NCBI GenBank assembly: GCA_023300375.1
Contig: JALZWO010000086.1
Span: 7,917-71,916 of the forward strand
DNA: 64,000 nucleotides
DNA from: Granulosicoccus sp.
Lineage (GTDB): Bacteria > Pseudomonadota > Gammaproteobacteria > Granulosicoccales > Granulosicoccaceae
Direction: 5' to 3'
This document shows, one piece after another, positions 1 to 45,198 of the stretch. The position numbers and the translations under genes are program-made. The notes under the pieces are model-generated. The model saw only the letters and a list, made by a program, of their open reading frames with translations. It searched no databases and was not told the DNA's origin. The number at the start of each line of letters is the position of its first letter. Position 1 is the first letter of the stretch.

Positions 1-117
1 CATACCGAATTCTCGTTTGTAATGCTGGGCAAATTTCAAACTAACCGATTCAGATAATCGGCTCAGCCTGAACGGCAGGAACTCTTCGAGTATCAGCGGG
101 CTTGTGGTCTTCTTCAT
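1..117 (-). CDS. MarR-family transcriptional regulator (5' part only, runs off the window), divergent from hmgA
   Basis: Not in the ORF track. ATG at 117 reads MKKTTSPLILEEFLPFRLSRLSESVSLKFAQHYKREFGM, matching the L-x-LE-x-FLP(Y/F)RLS N-terminus of MarR regulators found next to hmgA. Confidence 0.8.
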   Translation of the reverse strand, partial: MKKTTSPLILEEFLPFRLSRLSESVSLKFAQHYKREFGM

Positions 118-128
118 TGGCGTTGATA

Positions 129-157
129 GTTACAAAAGCAATGGTTACAATTGTAAC
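129..157. promoter_or_regulatory. Putative MarR operator: perfect palindrome GTTACAATTGTAAC (144-157) plus an extra half-site GTTACAA (129-135)
   Basis: Seen directly in the 63-bp gap between the divergent marR and hmgA genes. Confidence 0.6.
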
Positions 158-180
158 TAAAGTGACCGCTAGGGGCGACA

Positions 181-1479
181 ATGGTTCTCGAATATCAATC
201 GGGGTTTGGCAACGATTTTGAAACTGAAGCGGTTTTGGGTGCGCTGCCGCAAGGGCAGAACAGCCCCCAGAACTGTGCCTTCGGTTTGTACGCCGAGCAG
301 CTTTCTGGTTCGGCGTTTACCGCACCGAGAGGCCAGAATGAACGCTCTTGGCTCTATCGTATTCGGCCCAGTGTGCTGCATACCAACCGGTTCGAGCAGT
401 TTGACGTTGCCCTGTGGCAATCGGCGCCGCATAGCAGATCATCGGCATTGCCGTTAGGCCAGTATCGTTGGGATCCGATTCCAGCAGCAGCACCCAACAC
501 CACATTCGTGGATGGGGTCAACACCATGACCACTGCGGGTGATGTGCAAACACAGACGGGTATGGCAGCGCATATCTATGACTTCAATACGAACGATGCA
601 GACACCTATTTTTGTAACGCTGATGGTGAAATGTTGTTTGTGCCTCAACAAGGCGATTTGCGCCTATTTACCGAACTTGGTTGCCTGTTGGTATCACCTG
701 GGGATATAGCCGTTGTGCCTCGTGGCATGATCTTTCGGGCGGATTGCATGGGCGACACTGCCAGAGGCTATCTGTGTGAGAACTATGGAGCGCCATTAAC
801 CTTGCCTGAGCGCGGGCCTATCGGTGCGAACTGTTTGGCTAACCCGCGTGATTTTAAAACGCCAGTGGCAGCGTTTGAGGATAAGGAAGTCGATTGTCAT
901 GTGATTTACAAATGGAGTGGTGAATTTCATCGTACTCTTATAGACCATTCGCCTTTAGATGTGGTGGCCTGGCATGGCAACTACGCGCCTTATAAGTATG
1001 ACCTTTCAACTTTTTCGCCTGTTGGAGCCATTGCTTTCGATCATCCAGATCCCTCGATATTCACGGTGTTAACATCACCAACAGAGCAAGATGGAACGGC
1101 GAACATAGACTTCGTTATCTTTCCTCCGCGTTGGATGGTGGCAGAAAATACGTTCCGTCCGCCTTGGTATCACCGAAATATCATGAGTGAATTCATGGGG
1201 CTCATCAAAGGGGCTTATGATGCGAAAGAGAAGGGGTTTGTTCCTGGGGGCGCAAGCTTGCACAATCAGATGCTTCCACATGGGCCAGATGCTTTCGGAT
1301 TTAATAAGGCATCAACAGACACTCTGGGGCCTGTAAAACTAGACAATACTCTGGCCTTCATGTTCGAAACACGATACGCGCAGAAAGTCACGCAATACGC
1401 GAGTCAACTCACTGGCTTGCAAGATGACTACATCGATTGTTGGCGTGATCTTAAACGCCGCTTTCCAAAACAAGATTGA
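181..1479 (+). CDS. hmgA: Homogentisate 1,2-dioxygenase
   Basis: Motifs [56 protein letters not shown] and SLHN-MLPHGPD. Confidence 0.97.
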
Positions 1480-1530
1480 TCCTACATTTTCAACAGCTGG
1501 TTAAGGCTGTTCATTCGGTATCAGTGAACT

Positions 1531-2544
1531 ATGAAACTGGCAACTAAACGTCATTCACGTAGAGATGGGCAATTGGTGGTTGTTTCCACCGATCTAAGCC
1601 GGTATGTTTTGGCAGAGGATATTGCACCGACCCTACAAGCTGCACTCGACGAGTGGGATAACATGGCTCCCAAATTACAGGCTTTATCAGATCAGCTGAA
1701 CAGTGATGTAAACATGGGACAACACTTTGATCAGTTGGATGCAGAATCCCCACTGCCCAGAGCGTACCAATGGGCCGATGGCTCGGCGTATGTGAATCAC
1801 GTGGAGTTAGTAAGGAAGGCTCGAGGTGCTGAAGTGCCTGAGAGTTTCTGGACAGATCCGCTCATGTACCAGGGGGGCTCAGATACTTTTTTAGGGCCAC
1901 GCGATGATATTGAAATGCTCACCACCGATTGGGGTATTGATATGGAAGGCGAAATAGCGGTTATTACGGGTGATGTGCCATTCGGTGCAACTGCTGAACA
2001 AGCCAGCGATAGCATTCGTTTGTTCATGCTGGTGAATGACGTTTCACTTCGGGGGCTTATCCCCGCTGAATTGGCTAAGGGCTTTGGTTTTTTTCAAAGC
2101 AAACCTTCATCAGCCTTTTCTCCGGTGGCTGTAACTCCCGACGAGCTGGGTGAGGCTTGGGTTGATGGAAAAGTCCATTTACCCCTGCTTGTTGACTACA
2201 ACGACAAACCATTTGGAAAAGCTAACGCCGGTATCGATATGACGTTTAATTTTCCAACCTTGATCAGCCACGCAAGCAAGTCGCGTGCACTCAGCGCTGG
2301 CACGATCGTGGGCTCTGGCACGGTAAGTAATAAAATGGATGGCGAGCCCGGCAAGCCCATAGAGCACGGTGGTGTGGGCTATTCTTGTATTGCTGAAATT
2401 AGAATGATCGAAACGATAAACGATGGAAAGCCAAGCACAACATTTATGCAGTTTGGTGATACGGTCAAAATCTCTATGACCGATGCTAACGGCCATTCTC
2501 TGTTTGGTGATATCTATCAAACGGTTAAACAGCGCAAAGCATGA
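1531..2544 (+). CDS. Fumarylacetoacetate hydrolase family protein
   Basis: Motifs RDGQLVVVS, SPLPRAYQWADGSAY, DMEGEIAV, NDVSLR and GSGTVSN; directly downstream of hmgA. Confidence 0.9.
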   Translation: MKLATKRHSRRDGQLVVVSTDLSRYVLAEDIAPTLQAALDEWDNMAPKLQALSDQLNSDVNMGQHFDQLDAESPLPRAYQWADGSAYVNHVELVRKARGAEVPESFWTDPLMYQGGSDTFLGPRDDIEMLTTDWGIDMEGEIAVITGDVPFGATAEQASDSIRLFMLVNDVSLRGLIPAELAKGFGFFQSKPSSAFSPVAVTPDELGEAWVDGKVHLPLLVDYNDKPFGKANAGIDMTFNFPTLISHASKSRALSAGTIVGSGTVSNKMDGEPGKPIEHGGVGYSCIAEIRMIETINDGKPSTTFMQFGDTVKISMTDANGHSLFGDIYQTVKQRKA

Positions 2545-2763
2545 TTGCTGTTGTCATTGAATATGCACAACGACTTTCAATCGTCTACGTCATGAAAATC
2601 CTGTCAGTCGTGTAAGACAGTGGTTGGCGCTAGGTGATGATCGTGCGTAGTGGTGAGTATTCTATTTGGAATTGTGAATGTTTAGTCAGTGGCTTATCCA
2701 AACGCTAGCGCCCGATTAAAACGTGAGCAAACTCTTTGATGATTATCTGTCTGGCTGGTGAAC

Positions 2764-2793
2764 ATAACTTTGCTGCCTAGGCAGCAAAGTTAT
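2764..2793. repeat. Perfect 30-bp palindrome between convergent genes; probable bidirectional terminator
   Basis: ATAACTTTGCTGCCT followed immediately by AGGCAGCAAAGTTAT, 30 bp beyond the GMC stop codon. Confidence 0.7.
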
Positions 2794-2822
2794 CACTCAA
2801 TTATGAAAAACAAATCGGCTCG

Positions 2823-4391
2823 CTAAATAGTCCGCTCGTTCATCTGCTTTTCAATGTAGTCAGCCTGGCGAATAGCTAAACTCACAATAGTGAGCGTGGG
2901 ATTCTCAGCACCGCCGGTTGTGAATTGACTGCCATCGGATACAAACAGATTGTCTATGTCGTGGCTTTGGCCAAAACCATTGACTACGCCGTCTTTGGCG
3001 TCGCGGCTCATGCGTAGCGTACCCAAGTTGTGCGTTGATGGGTACGGTGGAGTGGGGTAGGTTTGCGTGGCTCCTACCGAATCGTATAAGGCCATACCTT
3101 GTTGATACGCATGATTACGCATAGCGACATCGTTAGGGTGATCATCAAAGTGCACATTGGCTGCAGGCATATCAAATTGATCCTTTTCATCGGATAGGGT
3201 GATGCCGTTAGATTCTTGCGGCATGTCTTCACCCACTAGCCACATGCCCGCCATGTTCTGATAAGTGTCCATTGCCGCTGAGAACTCGCGACCCCAAGCC
3301 CCTGGATTGAGAAACGCTGCCATGAACGGTACGCCAATAGATAGAGTTTCCATTTCATAGCCACCCACAAAGCCACGATCGGGATTGTTGACGGATTCAT
3401 CGGTGATTATTCCAGCCATGGTGGTGCCTCGGTACATATTAACGGGCTTGTCAAAGGCTGCATAAACAGAGCCTGTCATGTGCCGCATGTAGTTCCTGCC
3501 CACCTGTCCTGAGCTGTTTGCTAAACCATCAGAGAATAGCGATGACGCCGAATTAAGCAGTATGCGAGGGCTTTCAATCGAGTTGCCAGCAACACACACC
3601 ACTCGGGCTTTTTGCTCGAATTGATTACCTTCAAGGTCTTGATAGACAACGCCCGACACTTTGCCGTTGTTGTCGTGATTGATTTTTAGAACATGTGCGT
3701 TTTCGCGCACTTCCAGATTACCTGTGAGTTCTCCTTTGGGTATTTCTGTGTAAGCGGTAGACCATTTAGCACCCATTTTGCAGCCTTGAAAACAAAAGCC
3801 AAGCTGTTGGCAGGCTGGTCTGCCATCTCGTGGTTCTGAGTTAATTGCCATGCGGCCGGTGTGGCAGTTTTTATAACCCAACTTATCAGCACCAGCTTTC
3901 ATTACTTTGAAGTTGTTATTGCCGGGCAAACCTGGAATGCCATTAGTGCGAGTGACTCCCATTTTATCTTCAGCTTTGTCGTAATAAGGCTCGAGATCTT
4001 TAAGGGTGACTGGCCAGTCCAGTAGATTTGCGCCGTCAAGATCGCCATACTCTGTTCTGGCACGAAATTCATGCTCTTGTAAGCGAAGCGATGCGCCTGC
4101 CCAGTGCACCGTTGAACCACCTACCGCTTTAACAATCCAGGCGGGAAGATTGGGAAAGTCTTTAGCCACTCTCCAGTCGCCTGATGTGGTTCGCATATCC
4201 GTCCACGCGAGTTGGCTGAAGCTAGGCCATTCGTTATTCAGGTAATCCTGCGGTAGGTGCCTGCCGCCGGCTTCAAGAGCGACCACGCTGATACCTTTCT
4301 GCGCGAGTTCGTTAGCTAAGGTTCCACCACCTGCACCGGTGCCAATAATGACTACAACACTATTATCATTTACATCAAAAGGAGCTGCCAT
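2823..4391 (-). CDS. GMC-family oxidoreductase (FAD large subunit)
   Basis: GTGAGG FAD motif, GGSTVHWAG, Cys cluster CQQLGFCFQGC, HNLGT and NPTLTI. Confidence 0.92.
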   Translation of the reverse strand: MAAPFDVNDNSVVVIIGTGAGGGTLANELAQKGISVVALEAGGRHLPQDYLNNEWPSFSQLAWTDMRTTSGDWRVAKDFPNLPAWIVKAVGGSTVHWAGASLRLQEHEFRARTEYGDLDGANLLDWPVTLKDLEPYYDKAEDKMGVTRTNGIPGLPGNNNFKVMKAGADKLGYKNCHTGRMAINSEPRDGRPACQQLGFCFQGCKMGAKWSTAYTEIPKGELTGNLEVRENAHVLKINHDNNGKVSGVVYQDLEGNQFEQKARVVCVAGNSIESPRILLNSASSLFSDGLANSSGQVGRNYMRHMTGSVYAAFDKPVNMYRGTTMAGIITDESVNNPDRGFVGGYEMETLSIGVPFMAAFLNPGAWGREFSAAMDTYQNMAGMWLVGEDMPQESNGITLSDEKDQFDMPAANVHFDDHPNDVAMRNHAYQQGMALYDSVGATQTYPTPPYPSTHNLGTLRMSRDAKDGVVNGFGQSHDIDNLFVSDGSQFTTGGAENPTLTIVSLAIRQADYIEKQMNERTI

Positions 4392-35948: not shown

Positions 35949-37832
35949 TTATTGAAGGCTGAATTGCTTACCGGTAAAAATATCACCGATTAACACTTTT
36001 ACTTGCTGTAGCCAAGGCTCGCTTTCATTGCATGGTGGCATGGATTCGTTAGTTTCGATACAGGCCACAGTAGTATTGTTTGAAGCGGTGTAGTGCATTC
36101 CATAGACTGGACGTATTTTCAAAGTATCTGGATTGAGCGATGCATCAAAGCTTTGTGTTTCACGTTGTCCGAGTAGCGACATGATAATAGAGGGCATACG
36201 ATACATAGGTACATCGCCTAGCTCTAACGGTCCCCGCTGGCCGTCGATGACAATCAGTGGTGTGGAGGTTAGTTTTTGCAACTGCTCGCCAGAGTATTGC
36301 GAGCGCTCTTCAGGTAGTGCCCAAGCTTGCGTGTACACATCAAAGTTTGGGCCAAGAAACGGGAGATGATCACCGAAGATAACAATCAATGAGTTTGGGT
36401 CTTCGCGCTTTACTATCTCGAGACGTTGCATCAGGTCGCGTGATTTGTACCAGATCTGATTGATATAAGCGTTTAATAAAACTGAGTCGTGCCCGGATGT
36501 CACTTTATCTGGGTAGTTGTCGTTGCTTGGGTACGGTAGATGTCCGTGATAAGTCAGCATGTAGTTAAAAACAGGCACACTCGGTTCTGTGTCACTGATG
36601 TACTGAAACACTTGATCGTACATACTGTGGTCCATCAGTAATGGTCCAACAGAATCTGTCATATCAAAATCGGCTTTATTCAGGTAAGTGTCAAAGCCAA
36701 TCAACTGGTAGGAGTTAGTGCGATTCCAGAAGCCAGCTACATTGGGGTGTGAGGCCATGGTGTTGTAGCCAAGCTGTGATAACACTCTGGGTAGGCAGGG
36801 GGCGGAGCGTCGAAACCAGCCTTCAAAAAACACCGCATGTCGAGTGACTGGAAATCCGCAGAGTATTTCAAATTCTGCATTAGCTGTAAAACCACCAAAC
36901 ACCGGAGACATAGCTTGTGTATAGCCAGTTTGTTTCCACAGATCTCTAAAATCTTCTGGTAATGGATCCTCTGGGACCCAATCTGTTCCCAGAGACAACG
37001 GGTCAAAAAAAGACTCTAATACAAACACATGCACATTGCGCTGTGTAGGCTTTGCTTCAGGGTCAATAGCCGCATTGAATTCAGGTTCAAGCTGTCGTTC
37101 ATGTATTGCGGTGAGTTCGTGTGTTGAGGCGGGTTCGTATGCTGGGGTGAGTTTATGTGTTCCAGTGAGTGCTAACTGTTGTTGAGCAAAGTCAACGAGT
37201 TCACGCACCGGCGGTTTATCAACCTTACTGATTGTGCGTATGACTTCGTGAGTAAGATGTAAGGCAAGGCCTCGCTCACGAAAGTTCTGGGGCTGATTCC
37301 ATACTGAATTACCGATATGAGTATCGAGTGCTACACGCAGTGGTTCGCTGTAAGAATTCACGGCAACCCCCATTGTCGTTATTAGAACTAGTGTGGCCCA
37401 AACACTGGCCTTTTCCCATGCAATAAAAGCCACGCCTAAAATCAATGGGATACTGGCAACGAAGAAAAGAACCCAACGACGCCAACCCTCTGTCAAAAAG
37501 AAAAAATTCTGTATGTTCAATAAATCATCTGGGCTCGCAGGTGTCCCCAGAACGGATAATTTGGCCGCATTGCTCAGTTGAAACATGACAATTACGACGC
37601 CAGAAAACACTAAGGATTTTTTAACTGACAGCGTTAGTGCAAAAGCCAGAATGGCTATAATCAGATTGCCGATGTAGTCGCGGTACCAAAACCCCCAGTT
37701 TAGGGTGATATCAAAACCTGCTTCAGCGATTACTCTGCAAGCCAGAGTAATCGCTAATGTGGTAGCACACACTGTACCTGTGGCTATGGCTACGCTTTTC
37801 ACACTCGGAAGGTCATGATGCTGCGTGCTCAA
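35949..37832 (-). CDS. LTA-synthase / sulfatase family membrane transferase (candidate phosphoglycerol transferase)
   Basis: N-terminal TM helices, VLESF, GGFTANAEFE (catalytic Thr), HPN...WNR and GDHLP. TTG start overlaps the upstream stop codon (TTGA). Confidence 0.8.
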   Translation of the reverse strand: MSTQHHDLPSVKSVAIATGTVCATTLAITLACRVIAEAGFDITLNWGFWYRDYIGNLIIAILAFALTLSVKKSLVFSGVVIVMFQLSNAAKLSVLGTPASPDDLLNIQNFFFLTEGWRRWVLFFVASIPLILGVAFIAWEKASVWATLVLITTMGVAVNSYSEPLRVALDTHIGNSVWNQPQNFRERGLALHLTHEVIRTISKVDKPPVRELVDFAQQQLALTGTHKLTPAYEPASTHELTAIHERQLEPEFNAAIDPEAKPTQRNVHVFVLESFFDPLSLGTDWVPEDPLPEDFRDLWKQTGYTQAMSPVFGGFTANAEFEILCGFPVTRHAVFFEGWFRRSAPCLPRVLSQLGYNTMASHPNVAGFWNRTNSYQLIGFDTYLNKADFDMTDSVGPLLMDHSMYDQVFQYISDTEPSVPVFNYMLTYHGHLPYPSNDNYPDKVTSGHDSVLLNAYINQIWYKSRDLMQRLEIVKREDPNSLIVIFGDHLPFLGPNFDVYTQAWALPEERSQYSGEQLQKLTSTPLIVIDGQRGPLELGDVPMYRMPSIIMSLLGQRETQSFDASLNPDTLKIRPVYGMHYTASNNTTVACIETNESMPPCNESEPWLQQVKVLIGDIFTGKQFSLQ

Positions 37833-40477
37833 CGGCTAGGCTTAGGCGGACTATTGCTCAAGTTTTCAAGCAGGCTGTCCTCGCGCTTGCCACTGAACAA
37901 GCGGGCAGGCAGTTTCTCAAAAGCGCTGATCAACGCTAGAGCTACTGCGGCCATATACGGTGTGCTTTGAACAACCAGTAGCGCTATCCACATTTTCGTG
38001 TCGCTAAGATAAGCGTCATCCCGAAATGCAATTGCAATAGCAGCCACCAGGAGCCCAGCACAAAGAAAAGCTTCCTCACGTGCATCCATAAGCGCTTGTT
38101 TAACAGAATACGTTGAGCCCACCTTTGGCGTTCTAAAAAACCCGATTGATGACGTTCGCAGGCCTGCAAACATGGCTCGAGAAACAGTGTGTGAAACGGC
38201 AAGGCCGGCAATGCCTGCACCAATGCTCTGCAAAAAAGTGGCTTTCATTCGCCAGCGGTAAAGCACTAGCATTTTCGACAACTTGAACACAAAGAACGCA
38301 ATGGGTAACAGGCTGAGCATGATCTCTGGTGGGTTGTACTCATGAGGAGACAGAACCATCAGCACCGAGTACATCAATGCCACGCAGTTGAATATAAGGC
38401 ACAGGCCGTCTGCTACCCAAGGCACCCAGCCCGCTAGAAAATGGTAGCGCTGCCCAGCGTTAAGCTTCGAACGATTTAGCCGTAGGAAGTAGCGCATGTG
38501 ATGGCGCAGTATGAGTACAGAGCCGTAAGCCCAACGAAAGCGCTGCTTCTTGTAGTCAAGAAAATTGTCCGGCATCAACCCTCGTCCATAGGACTTGGGA
38601 ATGTAGGATGCTTTATAGCCCTGCTCAAGAATACGTAAGCCTAGCTCGGCGTCTTCAGTGATACACCAGTTTGCCCAGCCGTCGACTTCGTCAAGAGCAC
38701 TTCGTCTCACGATAGTCATTGTGCCGTGTTGAATGATCGCATTACGTGCATCACGATTGACCATGCCAATACCGAAAAATCCCGCGTATTCTGCATATAT
38801 CATTGACTTGAACAGGCTTTCGTCGGCGTCTCTGTAATCTTGTGGCGCTTGAACAATTGCAATTTGAGGGTCATAGAATGCAGCCATACATTCGTCCAGC
38901 CATTGCGGATCAACGGCGTAGTCACTATCAATGACGGCAATAAAATCGGCATCGCTGGCTGTGTGCTGCAAGGCGTAATTAAGAGCGCCCGCTTTAAAGC
39001 CTTTAAGTGGACTGACGTGATGAAACTGGAATCGATCATCTTGTCTTTGGCACCAGCTCTCAACGGGCATCCAACATGAGGAGTCTTCGGTGTTGTTATC
39101 AACAACGACGACTTCGAAGTTTTGGTAGGCGAGGTTTCTCAGGGCGGCGAGTGTTTCAATCACCATCTCTGGTGGTTCGTTATAGATAGGTACGTGAATA
39201 GACACCTTAGGCTTTGTGCGCAGCGTGGATTCATCTGGGTGTTTGTTCTTGCTAACGAGCCGGCGTTGCCATATGGCTTCAGCCCATTCGTGCGCCTCGG
39301 TTAACAAAACGATGCTGATACAAAATGCCGCCAATAGCAGCCCGATGCCGATAATAACCTGCTCCCAGGTCATGTACTTTTGCGAATAGTCGTAAATCAT
39401 CCAGACAACAGCGGTTGACACTGTCAGGGAGACAAGCACCAGAAAGCCGCGGCCTCCGTGAACCAAGCCACTACTGTCACGCAATAGTAGCGCGAGTATC
39501 AGGACTGCAAAGCCCAGTGAGAATCCGGCTATTGCGCGCCATTCAGGCACTGGCGTTACAGGCGCTGCAAACGGGAATTTAGGTTGCCGTTCGGCATTGA
39601 AGATTCCCCAGTACCGACCTACGGCACCTTCATCGGTTTTCCAGATTTGATCGAATGCTTCGAGTACAAAGTAGTTGACGTTGTTTTTTTCGGCTTGATC
39701 AAGAAATTGCCGAAGAAATTTCGCCTGATTTTGTAGCGATGGATACGCACCAAACCGTTGTCGGCCCTGGCTTGGCCAGCCCACCTCACCTAGTACGATG
39801 GGTTTGAAGGTGAATTCGTTCTGCAGTTGCTTGTAACGTCTAACTACATACTCTGGCGATTGCCACGCAGGAATACCTTCCCAATAGGGCAAGACGTGTG
39901 CTGTGATGAAGTCGACTTCTTTGGACAATGCTCGATTTTTTAGCCAGATATCCCAGGTTTCAGCAACAGTGACAGGTATAAAGCCTGCTAATTCTTGCAC
40001 CTGTCTTACATAGGCCGTGAGTTGTTTGCTGGTAATTTCATTGCGTAACAGCACTTCGTTGCCAACAACAATGCCCGTAATGTTTGCAGGGTTTTTTGCC
40101 AGCATCTGGCGCAGTCCGGCCAGCTCTTCCTCGTTTCGCTCAAGGTCACTGGAGATCCACAACCCGACCATAACCTTTAAGCCATGTTCAGCTGCCAGTT
40201 CTGGCACCAGTTTAAGCGTGCTTTCAACCGAATACGTTCGCACACTTTTGACTTTCGGAGCCAGTAACGCCAAATCCCTACTGATTTGGTTAGCGCTGGG
40301 ATACGCGGTGGGGCGTTGCGGAGATTGTCCAGGGCGGAATGGAGAGAACGAGACGCCTTGAATGGTAGTTGGCCACGCAGGTACGTAATCTGGGCGATTA
40401 AAGAGTGCCCATACAGACACCAGTAAGGCGCCGGCTAGGCCAATGATAATCCAGGATGCGCGATCTATTTTGAACAC
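37829..40477 (-). CDS. ndvB: GH17 + GT2 periplasmic (cyclic) beta-1,3-glucan synthase, NdvB-like
   Basis: GH17 motifs VGNEVLLR and LGEVGWPS; GT2 motifs VSIHVPIYNEP, DSDY, TEDAELG and QRFRW. GTG 40477 preferred over 40579. Confidence 0.85.
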   Translation of the reverse strand: MFKIDRASWIIIGLAGALLVSVWALFNRPDYVPAWPTTIQGVSFSPFRPGQSPQRPTAYPSANQISRDLALLAPKVKSVRTYSVESTLKLVPELAAEHGLKVMVGLWISSDLERNEEELAGLRQMLAKNPANITGIVVGNEVLLRNEITSKQLTAYVRQVQELAGFIPVTVAETWDIWLKNRALSKEVDFITAHVLPYWEGIPAWQSPEYVVRRYKQLQNEFTFKPIVLGEVGWPSQGRQRFGAYPSLQNQAKFLRQFLDQAEKNNVNYFVLEAFDQIWKTDEGAVGRYWGIFNAERQPKFPFAAPVTPVPEWRAIAGFSLGFAVLILALLLRDSSGLVHGGRGFLVLVSLTVSTAVVWMIYDYSQKYMTWEQVIIGIGLLLAAFCISIVLLTEAHEWAEAIWQRRLVSKNKHPDESTLRTKPKVSIHVPIYNEPPEMVIETLAALRNLAYQNFEVVVVDNNTEDSSCWMPVESWCQRQDDRFQFHHVSPLKGFKAGALNYALQHTASDADFIAVIDSDYAVDPQWLDECMAAFYDPQIAIVQAPQDYRDADESLFKSMIYAEYAGFFGIGMVNRDARNAIIQHGTMTIVRRSALDEVDGWANWCITEDAELGLRILEQGYKASYIPKSYGRGLMPDNFLDYKKQRFRWAYGSVLILRHHMRYFLRLNRSKLNAGQRYHFLAGWVPWVADGLCLIFNCVALMYSVLMVLSPHEYNPPEIMLSLLPIAFFVFKLSKMLVLYRWRMKATFLQSIGAGIAGLAVSHTVSRAMFAGLRTSSIGFFRTPKVGSTYSVKQALMDAREEAFLCAGLLVAAIAIAFRDDAYLSDTKMWIALLVVQSTPYMAAVALALISAFEKLPARLFSGKREDSLLENLSNSPPKPSR

Positions 40478-40803
40478 AGTTTCTTCAGTTTGGGTGCACC
40501 GCAGACTCGGCAGCTCAACAATTTTGGGCTCTTCGTCCGTGCGCGTGAAATTAGCCTGCGTGTCACGTTTGACTCGCAAGAATTTTTACTAACATGAGGG
40601 GTATGAGTTGTCTGTAATGTGATAGTTTGGAAAAAGTATGAATCTCACAACGGCATAATAGATGTGTTAGGTAAAAAATCGTTGTAAAACAATACCTTAA
40701 AAAATACACGCTCACCGTTACAATATCGTTGTTTACAATGCTCCGTCAAACGGAGAGTGCCCGTTATGTGAGTTGTGTAGCAGTTGAGCTGCATTCACAT
40801 TTC

Positions 40804-41517
40804 TTATTGAGAGCGCTTGCGCACAACATGGTGTCTGGGGTTTACGTTGATCTCGCCCACAATGGCTCTATCGGCGGAAAACAACATGTGCAACAGCGCC
40901 TCAGCAATATCAACCGCCAGTAAGGCCTGCGAGGGTTCGGGCCCCGGTTCGAAGCTCAAGTTGTCAAAAAAGTCGGTTCTGACGCTCCCCGGATTAATGA
41001 TGCCGACATGGCAGTTTGCACCAGCCACTTCAGCGGAGAGGGCTTGGGCTGCACCGCGCAAACCGAATTTTGCAGCACTGTATAGCGTGCCGTATCGAGC
41101 ACCCTGAAGCGCACTGCTTGAGCCTATGAAGATAACATTGCTCCGCGTGCGGCTTCTTAAGGTAGGTAGGCACGCTCTAACCAAGCTGATGGGGCTCACC
41201 AGGTTGAACATCAAGCTTTGTTGAATTTGCGTGGCCGAGAAATTTTCTAGTGACCCTATATGGCCGACACCTGCATTGCACACGATGGCGTCTATGGGGT
41301 GATTTTCGATAATACCTTGCAGTAGGTCAACACTGGCCGGTATATCACTTAGATCGATGCTGTAATGGGTTTCACTGGAAGGCATCTGTGGCGCAGGGAG
41401 GCGTGACAAAGACACCACGTCGATGCCCTTTGCTGCTAGCGCATCACAGCAAGCGCGGCCGATGCCTCGGCTGCCACCTGTAATCAATACGCATTGGGGT
41501 TTGTGCATTCCCGTCAC
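40804..41517 (-). CDS. Short-chain dehydrogenase/reductase
   Basis: TGGSRGIG, NAG, GSSS and YSAAK. Confidence 0.92.
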   Translation of the reverse strand: MTGMHKPQCVLITGGSRGIGRACCDALAAKGIDVVSLSRLPAPQMPSSETHYSIDLSDIPASVDLLQGIIENHPIDAIVCNAGVGHIGSLENFSATQIQQSLMFNLVSPISLVRACLPTLRSRTRSNVIFIGSSSALQGARYGTLYSAAKFGLRGAAQALSAEVAGANCHVGIINPGSVRTDFFDNLSFEPGPEPSQALLAVDIAEALLHMLFSADRAIVGEINVNPRHHVVRKRSQ

Positions 41518-41533
41518 TCCGGATTCGGCTGAA

Positions 41534-42517
41534 TCAACTGCAGGGGAACAGCTGATCAGCTGTTATGACTTCGTCTAGACGTTGCATGCAATACGCGCGC
41601 ATAGCTTCCTCAGTTCTACAGGGGTAGCTCATTATGCCGTTGCGTGAATCCATCGGCGCTGAGAGCAGACGTGCGTCCGGATACAGTCGGACCAATTTTT
41701 TGTGAAACCCTTTTGGCAAACGGAAGACGCCCAGGCTGACGGAGTGAACAAGACTCATATCTAGCGCGGCGAACACTTCATCGAACATGCCGCCATACTG
41801 TGATTCAAAATTGTCGCAATACAGTAAAGGGTCGAAGCGCAAGCCAATCGGCCAACCTGCATCCTGTAGTTGTTTTAATGCGCTAAGTCGTTTTTTCAAT
41901 GAGGGTGTTCCATGTTCCTCACTGGCGACGATGTCCTGCGGAGAGAGGCTGAAAGCGGTCACTACGTTCGGCATGGGATCGTGTTTGAAAATGCTGCGTA
42001 GCTGCGTGCTTTTGGTGCGAAGTTCCAGATGAGCTTGAGGCGTCTTTTTAAAATGATTCAGGCAATCATCAATGAAGCCAGTGATGGGATCTAAGGCTAG
42101 GGAGTCGCAATCGTAGCCAGAGAAAAACCAAACCGGTTTGTCATGTTCTGCACACACAGTATCGATGTCGGTAAAAAAATCTTCTGAGTTAACAAACACC
42201 ACATAGTTAGCTGACGAGTACATGCCTTGCAGAAAACAGTAGCGGCAGTCGTACACGCAGTTCAGCATGTGTGCGAAGTAGTAGTTATGTTCGCCGCCAA
42301 TGTGGTATCCGGGAGGGGTGGGCAACACACGTCTGCCTGGCTTGTTGGCCAGAATCAGGGCTGGATTGCTTTTCTGTAGACGGAAATCCTGTGACGCTGA
42401 GTTGAATACATCGCCATAGCGTTCAATGTCTATCACGCGGGCTCGCGGATAGCGATTGAGAATGTCCCGCGTGCGATGATGGTCTCGAATTCCCTGTTCT
42501 ACATAAACAGTTTGCAT
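41534..42517 (-). CDS. Spore-photoproduct-lyase-like radical SAM protein
   Basis: CVYDCRYCFLQG (CxxxCxxC), ELRTKS, FSLSP, SLKKRL and RFDPL. Confidence 0.85.
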   Translation of the reverse strand: MQTVYVEQGIRDHHRTRDILNRYPRARVIDIERYGDVFNSASQDFRLQKSNPALILANKPGRRVLPTPPGYHIGGEHNYYFAHMLNCVYDCRYCFLQGMYSSANYVVFVNSEDFFTDIDTVCAEHDKPVWFFSGYDCDSLALDPITGFIDDCLNHFKKTPQAHLELRTKSTQLRSIFKHDPMPNVVTAFSLSPQDIVASEEHGTPSLKKRLSALKQLQDAGWPIGLRFDPLLYCDNFESQYGGMFDEVFAALDMSLVHSVSLGVFRLPKGFHKKLVRLYPDARLLSAPMDSRNGIMSYPCRTEEAMRAYCMQRLDEVITADQLFPCS

Positions 42518-42527
42518 GGTCGGTCGC

Positions 42528-43328
42528 TCAGAGTGCCTTATAAATAAACGGGAGTTCGTCGAGTTGTTGCTGTAGGTGTTTGCGCAATTGCGAGGCGCTG
42601 CCTATGTGTTCTGGCCATGTAGGCGTCGTGTCTGCAATGTTGATGTAGCGGTGTAATAAGTCACGCAGCAAATGAGTGTCGTTAACTGTGTGATGAGCCA
42701 ATGTGTTTGCACTATCAACTAAAGAGCTGATGGTTGCTTGCTGGTTGTAAGCCTGAGTGAATTGGCTCTGTTGCAACGTCTCAATTAAAGGGCTAATGGA
42801 GGACATCGCAGAGCGCATGAGTTGCGACACACTGGCCTTGTTGATGTTTTCGATAGGGTGGTCTGGGTTGTCAGACACCACTTTCACGCAATGCACTTGG
42901 CTGGTGGACAAGTAGTGACTGGCAGCGCTGAATACACCCGCAGCTTCCATATCAAACACAATGCCCTGAGTATAGTGGGTATCAGGTTGGTCCAGTGATT
43001 CGACCACAGAGGAGGGCAGCGATGTAAAGCTCTGTGCATTGGGCAGGTGTGGATACCATTGTGCATGGCTTGCTCGGTCAGTTACACGTTGCGCCAGCAG
43101 GGCCTGTCCATAGGGGTATGGGCCACCAGCAATGCCGATATTGAGTACAGCCATAATGTTTGGATACGCTTGAAGCGCTGCTGCCGTGTGCGCAGCGGCA
43201 TTGAGCTTACCCATGCCAGTTTCTATCACCAACAGATCATCAGTTTTAGTTTGCCAGGCACGCAGATGCCGGGTGGTGCATTGCGCTAGTTTGTAGGTGT
43301 CGAGGAGTGCTCTTGTCTCGGCTGGCAT
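42528..43328 (-). CDS. Nucleoside phosphorylase / MTAN-like protein (PNP_UDP_1 fold); N-terminus probably extends upstream
   Basis: TGMGKLNAA, LNIGIAG, FDMEAAG and KVVSD. Confidence 0.8.
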   Translation of the reverse strand: MPAETRALLDTYKLAQCTTRHLRAWQTKTDDLLVIETGMGKLNAAAHTAAALQAYPNIMAVLNIGIAGGPYPYGQALLAQRVTDRASHAQWYPHLPNAQSFTSLPSSVVESLDQPDTHYTQGIVFDMEAAGVFSAASHYLSTSQVHCVKVVSDNPDHPIENINKASVSQLMRSAMSSISPLIETLQQSQFTQAYNQQATISSLVDSANTLAHHTVNDTHLLRDLLHRYINIADTTPTWPEHIGSASQLRKHLQQQLDELPFIYKAL

Positions 43329-43435
43329 GGCCGTGATAACGCAAACGACAGGCTGGTGGGTTAGTTTGCTGATGGGGTGATTTATGAACAGTGCGGGCTA
43401 AGCGTTACAATGATAGGCGTAACGGCTCTATTTAG

Positions 43436-43813
43436 GTGCCGCAATCTCAAACGATGCACACAACCGAGGGCAGTATCTTGCTAATTTCCAACCTTGAATT
43501 TCTTCCTGGAAGAACCGTCAACAAGCATCTGGGCCTGGTGCAGGGCAGTTCTGTGCGGTCCAAGCACGTAGGGCGCGATATTGCAGCCTCCTTCAAGAAC
43601 TTCTTTGGTGGTGAGCTAAAGGGCTACACCGAGCTCTTGGCAGACTCACGCGATGAGGCTACTGAAAGAATGCTGGAGCAGGCTAAAAGCATTGGTGCCA
43701 ATGCCGTTCTCAATATTCGCTACAGTACGTCAAGCATTGCCGCGGGGGCTGCTGAGATTTTTGTGTACGGCACGGCTGTGGAGTTGGTGGACCAGCCTGG
43801 CACTCATGAATAG
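43436..43813 (+). CDS. YbjQ/UPF0145 family protein
   Basis: GLVQGSSVRSKHVGRD, GGELKGYT, GANAV and YGTAV. Confidence 0.9.
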   Translation: MPQSQTMHTTEGSILLISNLEFLPGRTVNKHLGLVQGSSVRSKHVGRDIAASFKNFFGGELKGYTELLADSRDEATERMLEQAKSIGANAVLNIRYSTSSIAAGAAEIFVYGTAVELVDQPGTHE

Positions 43814-44336
43814 CGTGCTGATTCAGGCAGGTTTAGCCGTTGGCTTGCTCATACTGGGTTACCTGTTTGGCACCATTGCTGAAAAACGACACTATAAAAA
43901 AATTCGGCAAAGAGAGGCTAGTAGTGCTCATTTGCCCGTGATAGCCAGTCGATACCCTCCCGAAGATCGTATTTACGAACAACGATTGGTTCGGGGCGAA
44001 GTGGTGATCTCATCAGACTACTTCAAAGGTTTTCTAGCCGGGTTGGTGAATTTTTTTGGTGGGCGGGTAACACCTTTTGAAAGTTTGCTCGACCGTGCGC
44101 GTCGAGAGGCCATTTTGCGTATGAAAGAGCGAGCCTCCGAGCAAGGTGCAGCTTATGTATTTAATATCAAATTTGATACAACACGAATTGCCACTGGGCG
44201 ATTAGCTGCCATGGAAGTGCTCGCCTATGGGACCGCTATGGTGCCCAGTGCGGAGACGGGTCCGACTCTTGACGATGCCGTTGGTGGGATGCTCTTAAAT
44301 AATTCAGATGCCATGACGACAAATACACAGATTTAA
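43806..44336 (+). CDS. Membrane-anchored YbjQ-like protein
   Basis: N-terminal TM helix, LVRGEVVISSDYFK, RARREAILRM and AYGTA. ATG 43806 overlaps the upstream gene by 8 nt. Confidence 0.85.
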   Translation: MNSVLIQAGLAVGLLILGYLFGTIAEKRHYKKIRQREASSAHLPVIASRYPPEDRIYEQRLVRGEVVISSDYFKGFLAGLVNFFGGRVTPFESLLDRARREAILRMKERASEQGAAYVFNIKFDTTRIATGRLAAMEVLAYGTAMVPSAETGPTLDDAVGGMLLNNSDAMTTNTQI

Positions 44337-44340
44337 GGAA

Positions 44341-45198
44341 TTGCCCATGCAGTATGAAAATCGGCAGCCAACCGACGGCATCAATGTCACCAAAACCCGT
44401 CCCTTAGTGCAGTTTGTGCAGCTGGGTGTGGCTGCGGCTGTTCTTATTGTTTTGCTAGTGGTGGTATTGCAAGTGTCTGGTGGTTGGGTGGCCAAGCGCG
44501 TGCCCTTTAGCTTTGAATTACGAGTAATGCAAGAGCTGGATGTGGATTTTGGCCATAACAGCGAGCATCCGCAAATGGCGGCTTACCTCAATGAACTTGC
44601 GCAAAAAGTTAGCCTGAATATGGAGCTGCCTGATACGTTTGAATTCACGGTGCACTACAACAATCAAGATGTGTTTAATGCCTTTGCAACGATTGGCGGC
44701 AACTTGATGTTCTACAAAGGTTTGCTGGAGGATATGCCAAATGAGAATACGCTGGCCATGGTCATGGCACATGAAATTGCCCATGTTGTGCATCGCGATC
44801 CGGTGGCTTCGCTTGGTGGTGGTGTAGCCAGTACCCTGGCCTTGTTAGCGTTGACAGGTTCAACAGGCTCAAACATGGCAGGCTCGGTGTTAAGCAATGC
44901 CGGTACAGTCACCTCCATGCAATTCACACGAGGCATGGAACAATCGGCTGACGAGACGGCTGTAGCCGCTATGTACAACGTGTACGGGCACCTCAATGGG
45001 GCTGCACAATTATTCAAGCTGTTCAGTGACGCACGTGGTCCTGAATCACAAGGCTCAAAACTACTCGAAGGTTTCCTGAGTACGCACCCCCTGGATGAGA
45101 ACAGAGTGCTTGCCGTGCAAGAGCGAGCAGGCCTTGAGGGCTGGTCGCTAGAGGGTGAGCTTACTGCTTTGCCGGAAGGGTTTGCGAGTTGGCTATAG
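44341..45198 (+). CDS. M48 family metallopeptidase, membrane-anchored
   Basis: NAFATIGG, HEIAH, E..AD and STHP. Confidence 0.9.
   Translation: MPMQYENRQPTDGINVTKTRPLVQFVQLGVAAAVLIVLLVVVLQVSGGWVAKRVPFSFELRVMQELDVDFGHNSEHPQMAAYLNELAQKVSLNMELPDTFEFTVHYNNQDVFNAFATIGGNLMFYKGLLEDMPNENTLAMVMAHEIAHVVHRDPVASLGGGVASTLALLALTGSTGSNMAGSVLSNAGTVTSMQFTRGMEQSADETAVAAMYNVYGHLNGAAQLFKLFSDARGPESQGSKLLEGFLSTHPLDENRVLAVQERAGLEGWSLEGELTALPEGFASWL

Follow-up and report, generated by a model that had tools for sequence, protein, structure and literature searches.

A spore photoproduct lyase-fold radical SAM protein, an MTAN-fold nucleosidase and a short-chain reductase in Granulosicoccus: one representative of a conserved module with four roles

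Three adjacent genes on the minus strand of a Granulosicoccus contig combine a nucleosidase, a radical SAM (rSAM) protein resembling spore photoproduct lyase (SPL) and a short-chain dehydrogenase/reductase (SDR). The first-pass annotation of this locus had left two readings side by side: repair of UV- or desiccation-damaged DNA in a non-sporulator with salvage of the by-product, or an undescribed nucleoside or sugar pathway consisting of a radical step, base release and reduction. Which of the two the genes serve was addressed by analysis of the window, i.e. the whole stretch of 64,000 nucleotides that contains them, and of related genomes.

Gene boundaries and identity of the trio

All three genes are real. 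The first encodes an MTAN-fold adenine nucleosidase, the second an SPL-fold radical SAM enzyme and the third a short-chain reductase. The nucleosidase open reading frame (42528–43328, minus strand) encodes 266 aa and matches PF01048 (PNP_UDP_1) at 3.7e-09; the rSAM gene (41534–42517, minus strand) encodes 327 aa of the SPL family PF20903; and the SDR gene (40804–41517, minus strand) encodes 237 aa and matches PF00106 (adh_short) at 1.2e-34 and 120 bits. The co-orientation and the gaps of 10 and 16 bp reported in the first-pass annotation are correct for the reading frames as first annotated.

Two of the starts probably lie elsewhere. The nucleosidase frame stays open upstream to 43398, and its homologues start 7–20 residues earlier, the extra residues including the first beta strand. 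The codon at 43385–43383 is ATA in the Granulosicoccus window and ATG in the nearest relative (G011), and the position is unchanged across contigs from three runs of two studies. Because of the earlier starts of the homologues, the ATG of the relative and the agreement between runs, the start was placed at 43385; judged from these comparisons, the gene probably begins with the non-canonical codon ATA rather than with ATG 43328. The probable full gene (42528..43385, minus strand) encodes the MTAN-fold adenine nucleosidase with a C-terminal tail of four helices and about 100 aa. The ancestral ATG start is represented by ATA in this genome, which makes the expression level of the nucleosidase uncertain. 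For the SDR, ATG 41508, with a GGAG sequence 8 nt on its 5' side, is a more likely start than 41517, and the gap to the rSAM gene would then be 25 bp.

Inspection of the 10 nt between the nucleosidase stop and the rSAM ATG (42518..42527, minus strand) revealed nothing resembling a Shine-Dalgarno sequence, as translational coupling of the two genes would allow. A promoter and terminator scan of the locus gave counts no better than those of shuffled sequences. The SDR translation carries both the TGxxxGxG cofactor motif (as TGGSRGIG) and the Tyr-x3-Lys motif (as YSAAK) of a classical SDR, and reaches no curated equivalog in NCBIfam.

The radical SAM protein compared with spore photoproduct lyase

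The rSAM protein matches PF20903 at 7.5e-21, above the threshold. Its AF2 model (pLDDT 89) matches the structures 4FHC–4FHG over the full length, with a TM score of about 0.83 (0.81–0.84, ~348 columns); against the same model, other rSAM enzymes do not exceed 0.5. In a profile alignment to G. thermodenitrificans (Gt) SPL, with which it shares ~17% identity, the SAM ligands K174, S195 and R273 are retained as K169, S190 and R266. The cluster cysteines C87, C91 and C94, which make up the CxxxCxxC motif seen in the first-pass annotation (C87-x3-C91-x2-C94), are invariant in the orthologues.

The residues of SPL to which lesion binding and radical relay are assigned (PMC3467042) are replaced or deleted. 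In the aligned region, which excludes Y339 and the position of Clostridium C77 (Gt S76), R193 is replaced by an invariant alanine (A188) and E268 by an invariant glycine (G263), Y98 lies opposite F95 and C140 opposite Y135, and a seven-residue deletion removes K309 and the hairpin tip R304/Y305. The cysteine of the SGYDCDS segment, earlier described as about two residues off the H-donor cysteine, is C137, which indeed lies two residues after Tyr135. It is not conserved, being Gly or Ala in 5 of 35 orthologues, Ser in Lachnospiraceae and Ser or Gly in type-2 rSAM proteins, which argues against the DNA-repair reading; apart from the cluster cysteines, no cysteine is invariant in the rSAM family. 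The scores against TIGR04070 (86.7 bits, cut-off 400) and TIGR03886 (65.2 bits, cut-off 437.55) are far below the cut-offs.

Judged from the aligned residues, the protein is an SPL-fold enzyme but no SP lyase: the ligands of the cluster and of SAM are kept, and the lesion-binding and repair residues are gone. It resembles SplB (EC 4.1.99.14; TIGR04070) in its fold, the CxxxCxxC motif, the SAM ligands and a short beta-hairpin in the corresponding position; unlike SplB, it always occurs with a nucleosidase and a reductase, and usually with a GT2 glycosyltransferase, and has lost the lesion ligands. A plain SP lyase that works independently of its neighbours, which the first-pass annotation had considered, is thus not what the gene encodes. 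Members of the family are entered in databases as "spore photoproduct lyase" or as "DNA photolyase", and an ESM Atlas feature search returned only "spore photoproduct lyase" clusters. By present evidence this label is wrong for a family of over 800 sequence clusters.

A true lyase of non-sporulators that repairs photoproducts or dihydropyrimidine adducts in DNA, with salvage of the by-product, is accordingly very improbable. Such an enzyme would explain the full-length SPL fold and the PF20903 match, and would suit a habitat that we take to be a sun-exposed kelp surface, as labelled in the run records. It is opposed by the substitutions and deletions listed above, by the TIGR04070 score, by the conservation of the rSAM gene together with a reductase and a glycosyltransferase, and by the presence of the module in 23 of 151 Lachnospiraceae genomes.

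The nucleosidase, its predicted docking and the conserved module

The AF2 model of the nucleosidase (pLDDT 93) displays the MTAN/futalosine-hydrolase fold plus helices at residues 183–277, and its top Foldseek matches are MTAN and futalosine hydrolase structures, with 4BMZ among the best. Residues E23, E147 and D172, equivalent to E12, E174 and D197 of E. coli MTAN, are invariant in all 46 family members compared (46/46). The best NCBIfam match is to futalosine hydrolase (TIGR03664), at 41.2 bits against a cut-off of 124.7, and the MTAN model NF004079 scores 23.2 against 169; the helical tail of ~100 aa is missing from the MtnN and MqnB families. By its modelled fold and its triad, the protein is an MTAN-type N-ribosyl hydrolase outside the named equivalogs MtnN and MqnB.

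Prediction of a complex between the nucleosidase and the rSAM protein gave a score of 0.78, compared with 0.04 for the best of three controls; that level was attained by 58 of 80 solved complexes, as against 2 of 110 mismatched pairs. The runs share at least 88% of contacts, with a partner pLDDT of at least 86. The predicted interface involves the conserved rSAM N-terminal residues 25–53, a WYP loop specific to the family and the nucleosidase's C-terminal tail; on the nucleosidase side it comprises residues 109–118 and, in the tail, 279–285. Additionally, the nucleosidase contacts rSAM loops 193–200, 232–240 and 276–288, which we take to border the opening at the barrel's side in the SPL fold. 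The prediction supports docking of the nucleosidase on the radical SAM enzyme.

A docked nucleosidase could also serve the rSAM protein itself. The latter might carry out an ordinary H-abstraction (of the lyase, isomerase or dehydratase type) on a small nucleoside or sugar, with the reductase and GT2 completing the product, and the nucleosidase would destroy inhibitory 5'-deoxyadenosine or remove adenine from an adenosine-containing substrate. H-atom abstraction is the reaction of the two SPL-fold enzymes characterised so far. Moreover, the trio nucleosidase is the sole MTAN-type nucleosidase of this genome, in which no housekeeping MTAN was found besides it, only an MTI/MTA phosphorylase; such a genome could well use an enzyme dedicated to scavenging 5'-deoxyadenosine. 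Two lineages (L043 and L018) have a nucleosidase in which the tail persists but the catalytic residues are gone. Adenine removal by this protein is thus not always obligatory, and these dead enzymes with a docking tail suggest that the structural partnership outweighs hydrolysis. The nucleosidase also diverges much faster than the rSAM protein (33–41% vs 59–69% identity between the same genus-level genomes). We nonetheless regard this reading as doubtful, since nucleosidase-GT2 fusions and GT2-nucleosidase-SDR clusters apart from the rSAM gene, described below, are hard to explain with a nucleosidase that purely serves the rSAM protein, and we know of no other rSAM family with its own 5'-deoxyadenosine scavenger as a conserved fusion.

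In 45 of 50 loci the gene immediately upstream of the rSAM gene is that of the nucleosidase, and in 30 of 50 the SDR gene follows immediately downstream. Chance falls far short of explaining this arrangement, given its recurrence in 45/50 loci and the gene fusions; the trio is strongly conserved. A fourth member is a soluble GT2 glycosyltransferase. Its gene lies upstream in 26 of the 40 loci from other genera and adjoins the cluster in most other Gammaproteobacteria; here it is unlinked (G000:C16:1788-2651). Among 400 Gammaproteobacteria genomes, a type-1 or type-2 SPL-fold rSAM protein is carried by 52 of the 54 that are GT2-positive vs 8 of the 346 that are GT2-negative. The rSAM gene itself is present in about 12–15% of the genomes sampled from Gammaproteobacteria and Lachnospiraceae. 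No GT2 orthologue was found in Lachnospiraceae, where the carriers in the sample are metagenome assemblies only.

Fusions of the nucleosidase with the rSAM protein occur in some Gammaproteobacteria as well as in Lachnospiraceae (L035, L045 and ~90 Lachnospiraceae-type proteins of ~640 aa), and in the two Lachnospiraceae contigs inspected (P0131, P0177) the fusion is followed by an overlapping SDR gene. The type-2 variant has nucleosidase-GT2 fusions and an aldo/keto reductase (AKR) instead of the SDR, an exchange that fits reduction of a sugar-type carbonyl. GT2-nucleosidase-SDR clusters also lie apart from the rSAM gene (L163, L164, L151 and L161). What the trio represents locally is a conserved module with four roles: rSAM protein, nucleosidase, NAD(P)H carbonyl reductase and GT2. 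One more protein, P0256, resembles an rSAM-SDR fusion; it may be cut by the end of its contig and was left out of the evidence.

Candidate chemistry of the module

The rSAM protein probably works with its adenine-removing partner on an adenosine-derived small molecule, with chemistry nobody has described; full-text literature searches of incomplete coverage returned no paper describing the module. Of the two readings offered at the outset, the nucleoside or sugar pathway is supported, its genes being tied together by synteny, fusions and phyletic co-occurrence, and it is extended by the GT2 member and the predicted nucleosidase-rSAM complex.

Two known systems are the closest guides. The HpnH/HpnG/HpnI pathway of the bacteriohopanepolyol side chain links the same four roles genetically, namely an rSAM enzyme (HpnH, adenosylhopane synthase), an adenine-removing PNP_UDP_1 protein (HpnG), carbonyl reduction and a GT2; after adenine removal, the hopanoid side chain undergoes ribose opening and then glycosylation by HpnI, a GT2 (PMC13459092). 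In contrast to that pathway, the rSAM protein here is of the SPL fold (no HpnH model is among its NCBIfam matches), the partners are not orthologues of HpnG or HpnI, the module proteins are soluble, and the module also occurs in Lachnospiraceae. Squalene-hopene cyclase (PF13243) was not found in this genome (97.5% complete), so a link to hopanoids was rejected and the acceptor would not be a hopanoid. In the futalosine pathway, MqnE (aminofutalosine synthase) with the futalosine hydrolase MqnB, or with the MTAN of H. pylori, likewise pairs an rSAM enzyme with an MTAN-fold hydrolase, which there cuts the base from an adenosyl-carbon adduct. The MqnE fold, however, matches the rSAM model at a TM score of 0.46–0.49 only, the module is without MqnC or MqnD context, and the helical tail and the reductase and GT2 partners are its own features. 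To our knowledge, the known pathways that pair an rSAM enzyme with an MTAN/PNP-type nucleosidase (MqnE/MqnB and HpnH/HpnG) are all adenosylating. In an adenosylating enzyme the 5'-deoxyadenosyl group ends covalently in the product, and methionine, but no 5'-deoxyadenosine, is released.

By analogy, we tentatively favour a pathway that follows the same logic of 5'-deoxyadenosyl addition, adenine removal, reduction and glycosylation. The rSAM protein would make an adenosine-containing intermediate rather than repair DNA. Its most likely reaction would be the one known from HpnH, MqnE and ArsS, in which SAM's 5'-deoxyadenosyl radical is added to an acceptor, here an unsaturated or a heteroatom one. 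The docked nucleosidase would strip the adenine to leave a 5-substituted ribose, the reductase would convert the carbonyl of the opened ribose to a polyol, and the GT2 would glycosylate the reduced product. Adenosylation is suggested here by genetic logic only, through the dedicated nucleosidase, reductase and GT2. It is weakened by the H-abstraction precedents of the SPL fold, the dead nucleosidases, the lack of a housekeeping MTAN, the GT2-less Lachnospiraceae and the ATA start.

Both precedents, SPL and gp53 of phage M6, act by H-abstraction on thymine derivatives in DNA, the only chemistry to which the fold has so far been tied (PMC8989533). By its description, gp53, an SPL-like isomerase of thymidine hypermodification, likewise turns the SPL fold to biosynthesis; it differs in acting on DNA within a phage cluster with kinase and PLP enzymes, and has no nucleosidase, reductase or GT2 partners. 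More tentative still than the pathway is the broader proposal that the SPL fold includes a further, independent lineage of 5'-deoxyadenosyl-adding enzymes and that, in complex with the nucleosidase, such an enzyme starts the conversion of the ribose of SAM into a C5 side chain, reduced and glycosylated, of a metabolite, lipid or nucleobase. If adenosylation is true, it would be a structurally unrelated addition to the very small set of rSAM enzymes for which SAM serves as ribosyl-carbon donor, and a glycosylated polyol would be expected in marine, methanotrophic, sulfur-oxidising and Lachnospiraceae bacteria; the product of such an SPL-fold lineage would represent a class of compounds not detected so far. 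Even without adenosylation the architecture would be new, with an MTAN-like partner docked obligately on a radical SAM enzyme. With three or four soluble proteins, the module is directly testable by heterologous expression.

The thymine targets of both known SPL-fold enzymes would also fit a module for installing or processing a hypermodified base of tRNA or DNA, with a pyrimidine as the rSAM target, followed by base release, reduction and glycosylation. The solubility of the four proteins, none of which has a transmembrane segment, agrees with this, as does the presence of tmcA next to the cluster in two loci and of a dus gene in three. [quoted passage not shown] Adjacency to tmcA or dus is too rare to serve as a functional clue.

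Two further neighbours were set aside. A Na+/proline symporter adjoins the cluster in several loci; it scores as a genuine PutP, and its adjacency was taken as inherited gene order. The NdvB-like GH17-GT2 and LtaS-like genes (35949–40579) keep their place beside the trio only in the closest relative, and a promoter-like site lies between them and the SDR gene.

Gene organization and conservation

The window encodes a nucleosidase (42528–43328, 266 residues, Pfam PNP_UDP_1), a radical SAM protein (rSAM; 41534–42517, 327 residues, Pfam SPL, PF20903) and an SDR (40804–41517, 237 residues, Pfam adh_short). All three lie on the minus strand; the ORF calls agree with the first-pass annotation in giving gaps of 10 and 16 bp, and the reported CxxxCxxC motif is present in the rSAM translation as C87-x3-C91-x2-C94. 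The top homologues carry Granulosicoccus annotation. No curated NCBIfam equivalog was found for any of the three proteins; with the futalosine hydrolase model the nucleosidase reaches 41 bits (cut-off 124.7). No paper describing a nucleosidase–rSAM–SDR module was found in the literature searched.

In 44 homologues, the nucleosidase starts 7–20 residues ahead of the window's ATG and includes the first β-strand, and the window's reading frame is open across this additional segment. At 43383–43385 (minus strand) the window reads ATA in place of the ancestral ATG start, which the closest relative (G011) retains. Contigs from three public runs of two studies carry the same letters, so the ATA is not an assembly slip. 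Translation must begin at the ATA, at CTG 43391 or at the internal ATG 43328, the last of which removes the first β-strand. The SDR more likely starts at ATG 41508, 8 nt downstream of a GGAG.

The rSAM gene is present in 17 of 18 genomes of the genus. Clear orthologues (44–60% identity, >295 bits) occur in 50 of 400 Gammaproteobacteria covering a taxonomic spread, and are separated by a wide gap from the remaining SPL-like matches, which score at most 106 bits. The nucleosidase gene lies directly upstream of rSAM in 45 of the 50 loci and the SDR gene directly downstream in 30. A divergent YbjQ/YbjQ/M48-peptidase operon (43436–45198, plus strand) was compared within the genus only, where it adjoins the trio in each of the nine genomes whose flanks were retrieved. 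Downstream of the SDR, an NdvB-like GH17+GT2 glucan synthase gene and an LtaS/sulfatase-family gene (35949–40579, minus strand) retain this adjacency only in the closest relative; they are therefore a separate unit, and were ruled out as module parts.

Nucleosidase and rSAM form a single ORF in two gammaproteobacterial families (688 residues in L035 and 657 in L045). The same fusion is found in about 90 clusters of ~640-residue proteins, several labelled Lachnospiraceae, whose N-terminal halves are homologous to the window's nucleosidase; the SDR gene overlaps the end of the fusion in both cases whose contigs were looked up. Searching 1.84 billion representatives with a profile gave 819 clusters at E≤1e-30, many of which have the length of a fusion protein, and rSAM is present in 23 of 151 sampled Lachnospiraceae genomes. 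The fused gene of one Lachnospiraceae relative (G569:C1:15716–17638), a full-length match at 69% identity, contains three in-frame TAA codons, and the same gene has one TAA in G436 and one TGA in G489; these could reflect pseudogenes, sequencing errors or recoding. The metagenomic protein P0256 (491 residues) consists of a module-family rSAM that continues into the initial 30 residues of an adh_short domain, and is either an rSAM–SDR fusion or a product ended by the contig edge.

Comparison of the rSAM with spore photoproduct lyase

The AF2 model of the rSAM (pLDDT 89) superposes over its full length on G. thermodenitrificans spore photoproduct lyase (SPL) with a TM of 0.83, compared with at most 0.5 for other radical SAM enzymes. 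Residues with assigned roles in the SPL structure (SAM, thymine and phosphate ligands, hairpin tip, H-atom donor and radical relay; PMC3467042) were mapped by profile alignment. The SAM ligands K174, S195 and R273 are retained as K169, S190 and R266. In contrast, the thymine ligands R193 and E268 are replaced by invariant Ala (A188) and Gly (G263) across the family, and a 7-residue deletion removes the phosphate ligand K309 and the hairpin tip (R304, Y305). The H-atom donor C140 is Tyr (Y135) and the radical-relay Y98 is Phe (F95). A cysteine highlighted in the first-pass annotation does lie two residues past the C140 position; it is not conserved: 5 of 35 orthologues have Gly or Ala there, Lachnospiraceae have Ser, and a distant SPL-fold variant (type 2; the window-like form is type 1) has Ser or Gly.

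With the lesion-binding residues replaced or deleted, and a score of 86.7 bits against the SP-lyase NCBIfam model (cut-off 400), the sequence comparison indicates that the module rSAM is not an SP lyase. The earlier suggestion of true photoproduct repair thus becomes very improbable, and a role in nucleic-acid modification is unlikely; both rank below adenosylation and H-abstraction (see below).

Nucleosidase and its predicted complex with rSAM

At the positions of MTAN E12, E174 and D197, the 46 aligned nucleosidases, fusions included, show no variation from these catalytic residues, and the enzyme is probably active. Its model (pLDDT 93) shows an MTAN/futalosine-hydrolase fold with a four-helix tail at residues 183–277. 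Complex prediction supports docking of the nucleosidase on rSAM, with a score of 0.78 versus 0.04 for the best of three controls; 58 out of 80 solved complexes attain this mark, as do 2 out of 110 mismatched pairs. Contact agreement between runs was at least 88%, with partner pLDDT of at least 86. The predicted interface would explain the otherwise puzzling conservation of rSAM residues 25–53 at the N-terminus and, in the nucleosidase, of the WYP loop and the C-terminal tail.

Two proteins in the nucleosidase position (L043:6990–7730, minus strand; L018:5336–5998, plus strand) align with the family as homologues (hhalign probability 96–98%). Their catalytic Glu/Glu/Asp positions are lost, but the WYP loop and the helical tail remain. 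They resemble pseudo-enzymes kept as rSAM partners, and the partnership itself appears to be under selection.

Glycosyltransferase and candidate pathway

Outside the genus, 26 of 40 loci encode a soluble 287-residue GT2 glycosyltransferase immediately upstream of the nucleosidase. It is absent from the trio locus in Granulosicoccus; an orthologue (52% identity) is located on another contig of the window's genome (G000:C16:1788–2651), flanked by a DUF6164 gene and an AstE/AspA-family (succinylglutamate desuccinylase/aspartoacylase-like) gene within positions 1–4000. Among the 400 Gammaproteobacteria, SPL-fold rSAMs occur in 52 of 54 GT2-positive genomes (42 type 1, 10 type 2) and in 8 of 346 GT2-negative genomes (all type 1), counts given without a test statistic because related genomes are not independent. 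No GT2 orthologue was found in the one Lachnospiraceae genome examined, so the module core comprises nucleosidase, rSAM and reductase.

Type-2 rSAMs share 25–32% identity with the window's rSAM. GT2, nucleosidase and SDR genes remain clustered in L163 and L164 although the rSAM gene is elsewhere, and in L152, where it adjoins on the opposite strand. Nucleosidase and GT2 are fused (~495–500 residues) in three type-2 loci (L151:7946–9451, L161:6728–8209 and L162:6278–7762, all minus strand). An aldo/keto reductase (AKR) replaces the SDR after rSAM in L151, where the rSAM gene adjoins the fusion, and in L159 and L160, where the rSAM–AKR pair lies elsewhere in the genome. The four roles outlast gene shuffling, fusion and non-homologous replacement.

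Dedicated MTAN/PNP-type nucleosidases genetically tied to a radical SAM enzyme are known from adenosylating pathways, MqnE/MqnB and HpnH/HpnG among them. In hopanoid side-chain synthesis, ribose opening and glycosylation by a GT2, HpnI, come next (PMC13459092), and the four enzyme roles of that pathway are also found in the module. Squalene-hopene cyclase was not found in the window's genome. By analogy, rSAM would add 5'-deoxyadenosyl to an acceptor, followed by adenine removal, reduction and glycosylation. This adenosylation pathway is tentatively favored, based on the shared roles, the nucleosidase–GT2 fusions and the SDR/AKR exchange, which fits reduction of a sugar carbonyl.

The main alternative, somewhat less probable, is ordinary H-abstraction, in which the nucleosidase would dispose of 5'-deoxyadenosine. 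In its favor, H-atom abstraction is the chemistry of the known SPL-fold enzymes, variants with a dead nucleosidase occur, and no MTAN (Pfs) was found in the window's genome, where the sole housekeeping PNP_UDP_1 enzyme for MTA-type nucleosides scores as an S-methyl-5'-thioinosine phosphorylase (L165:493–1239 on contig C18, minus strand; 338 bits, cut-off 223). However, the nucleosidase–GT2 fusions speak for a nucleosidase that acts on a pathway intermediate and not on a by-product alone.
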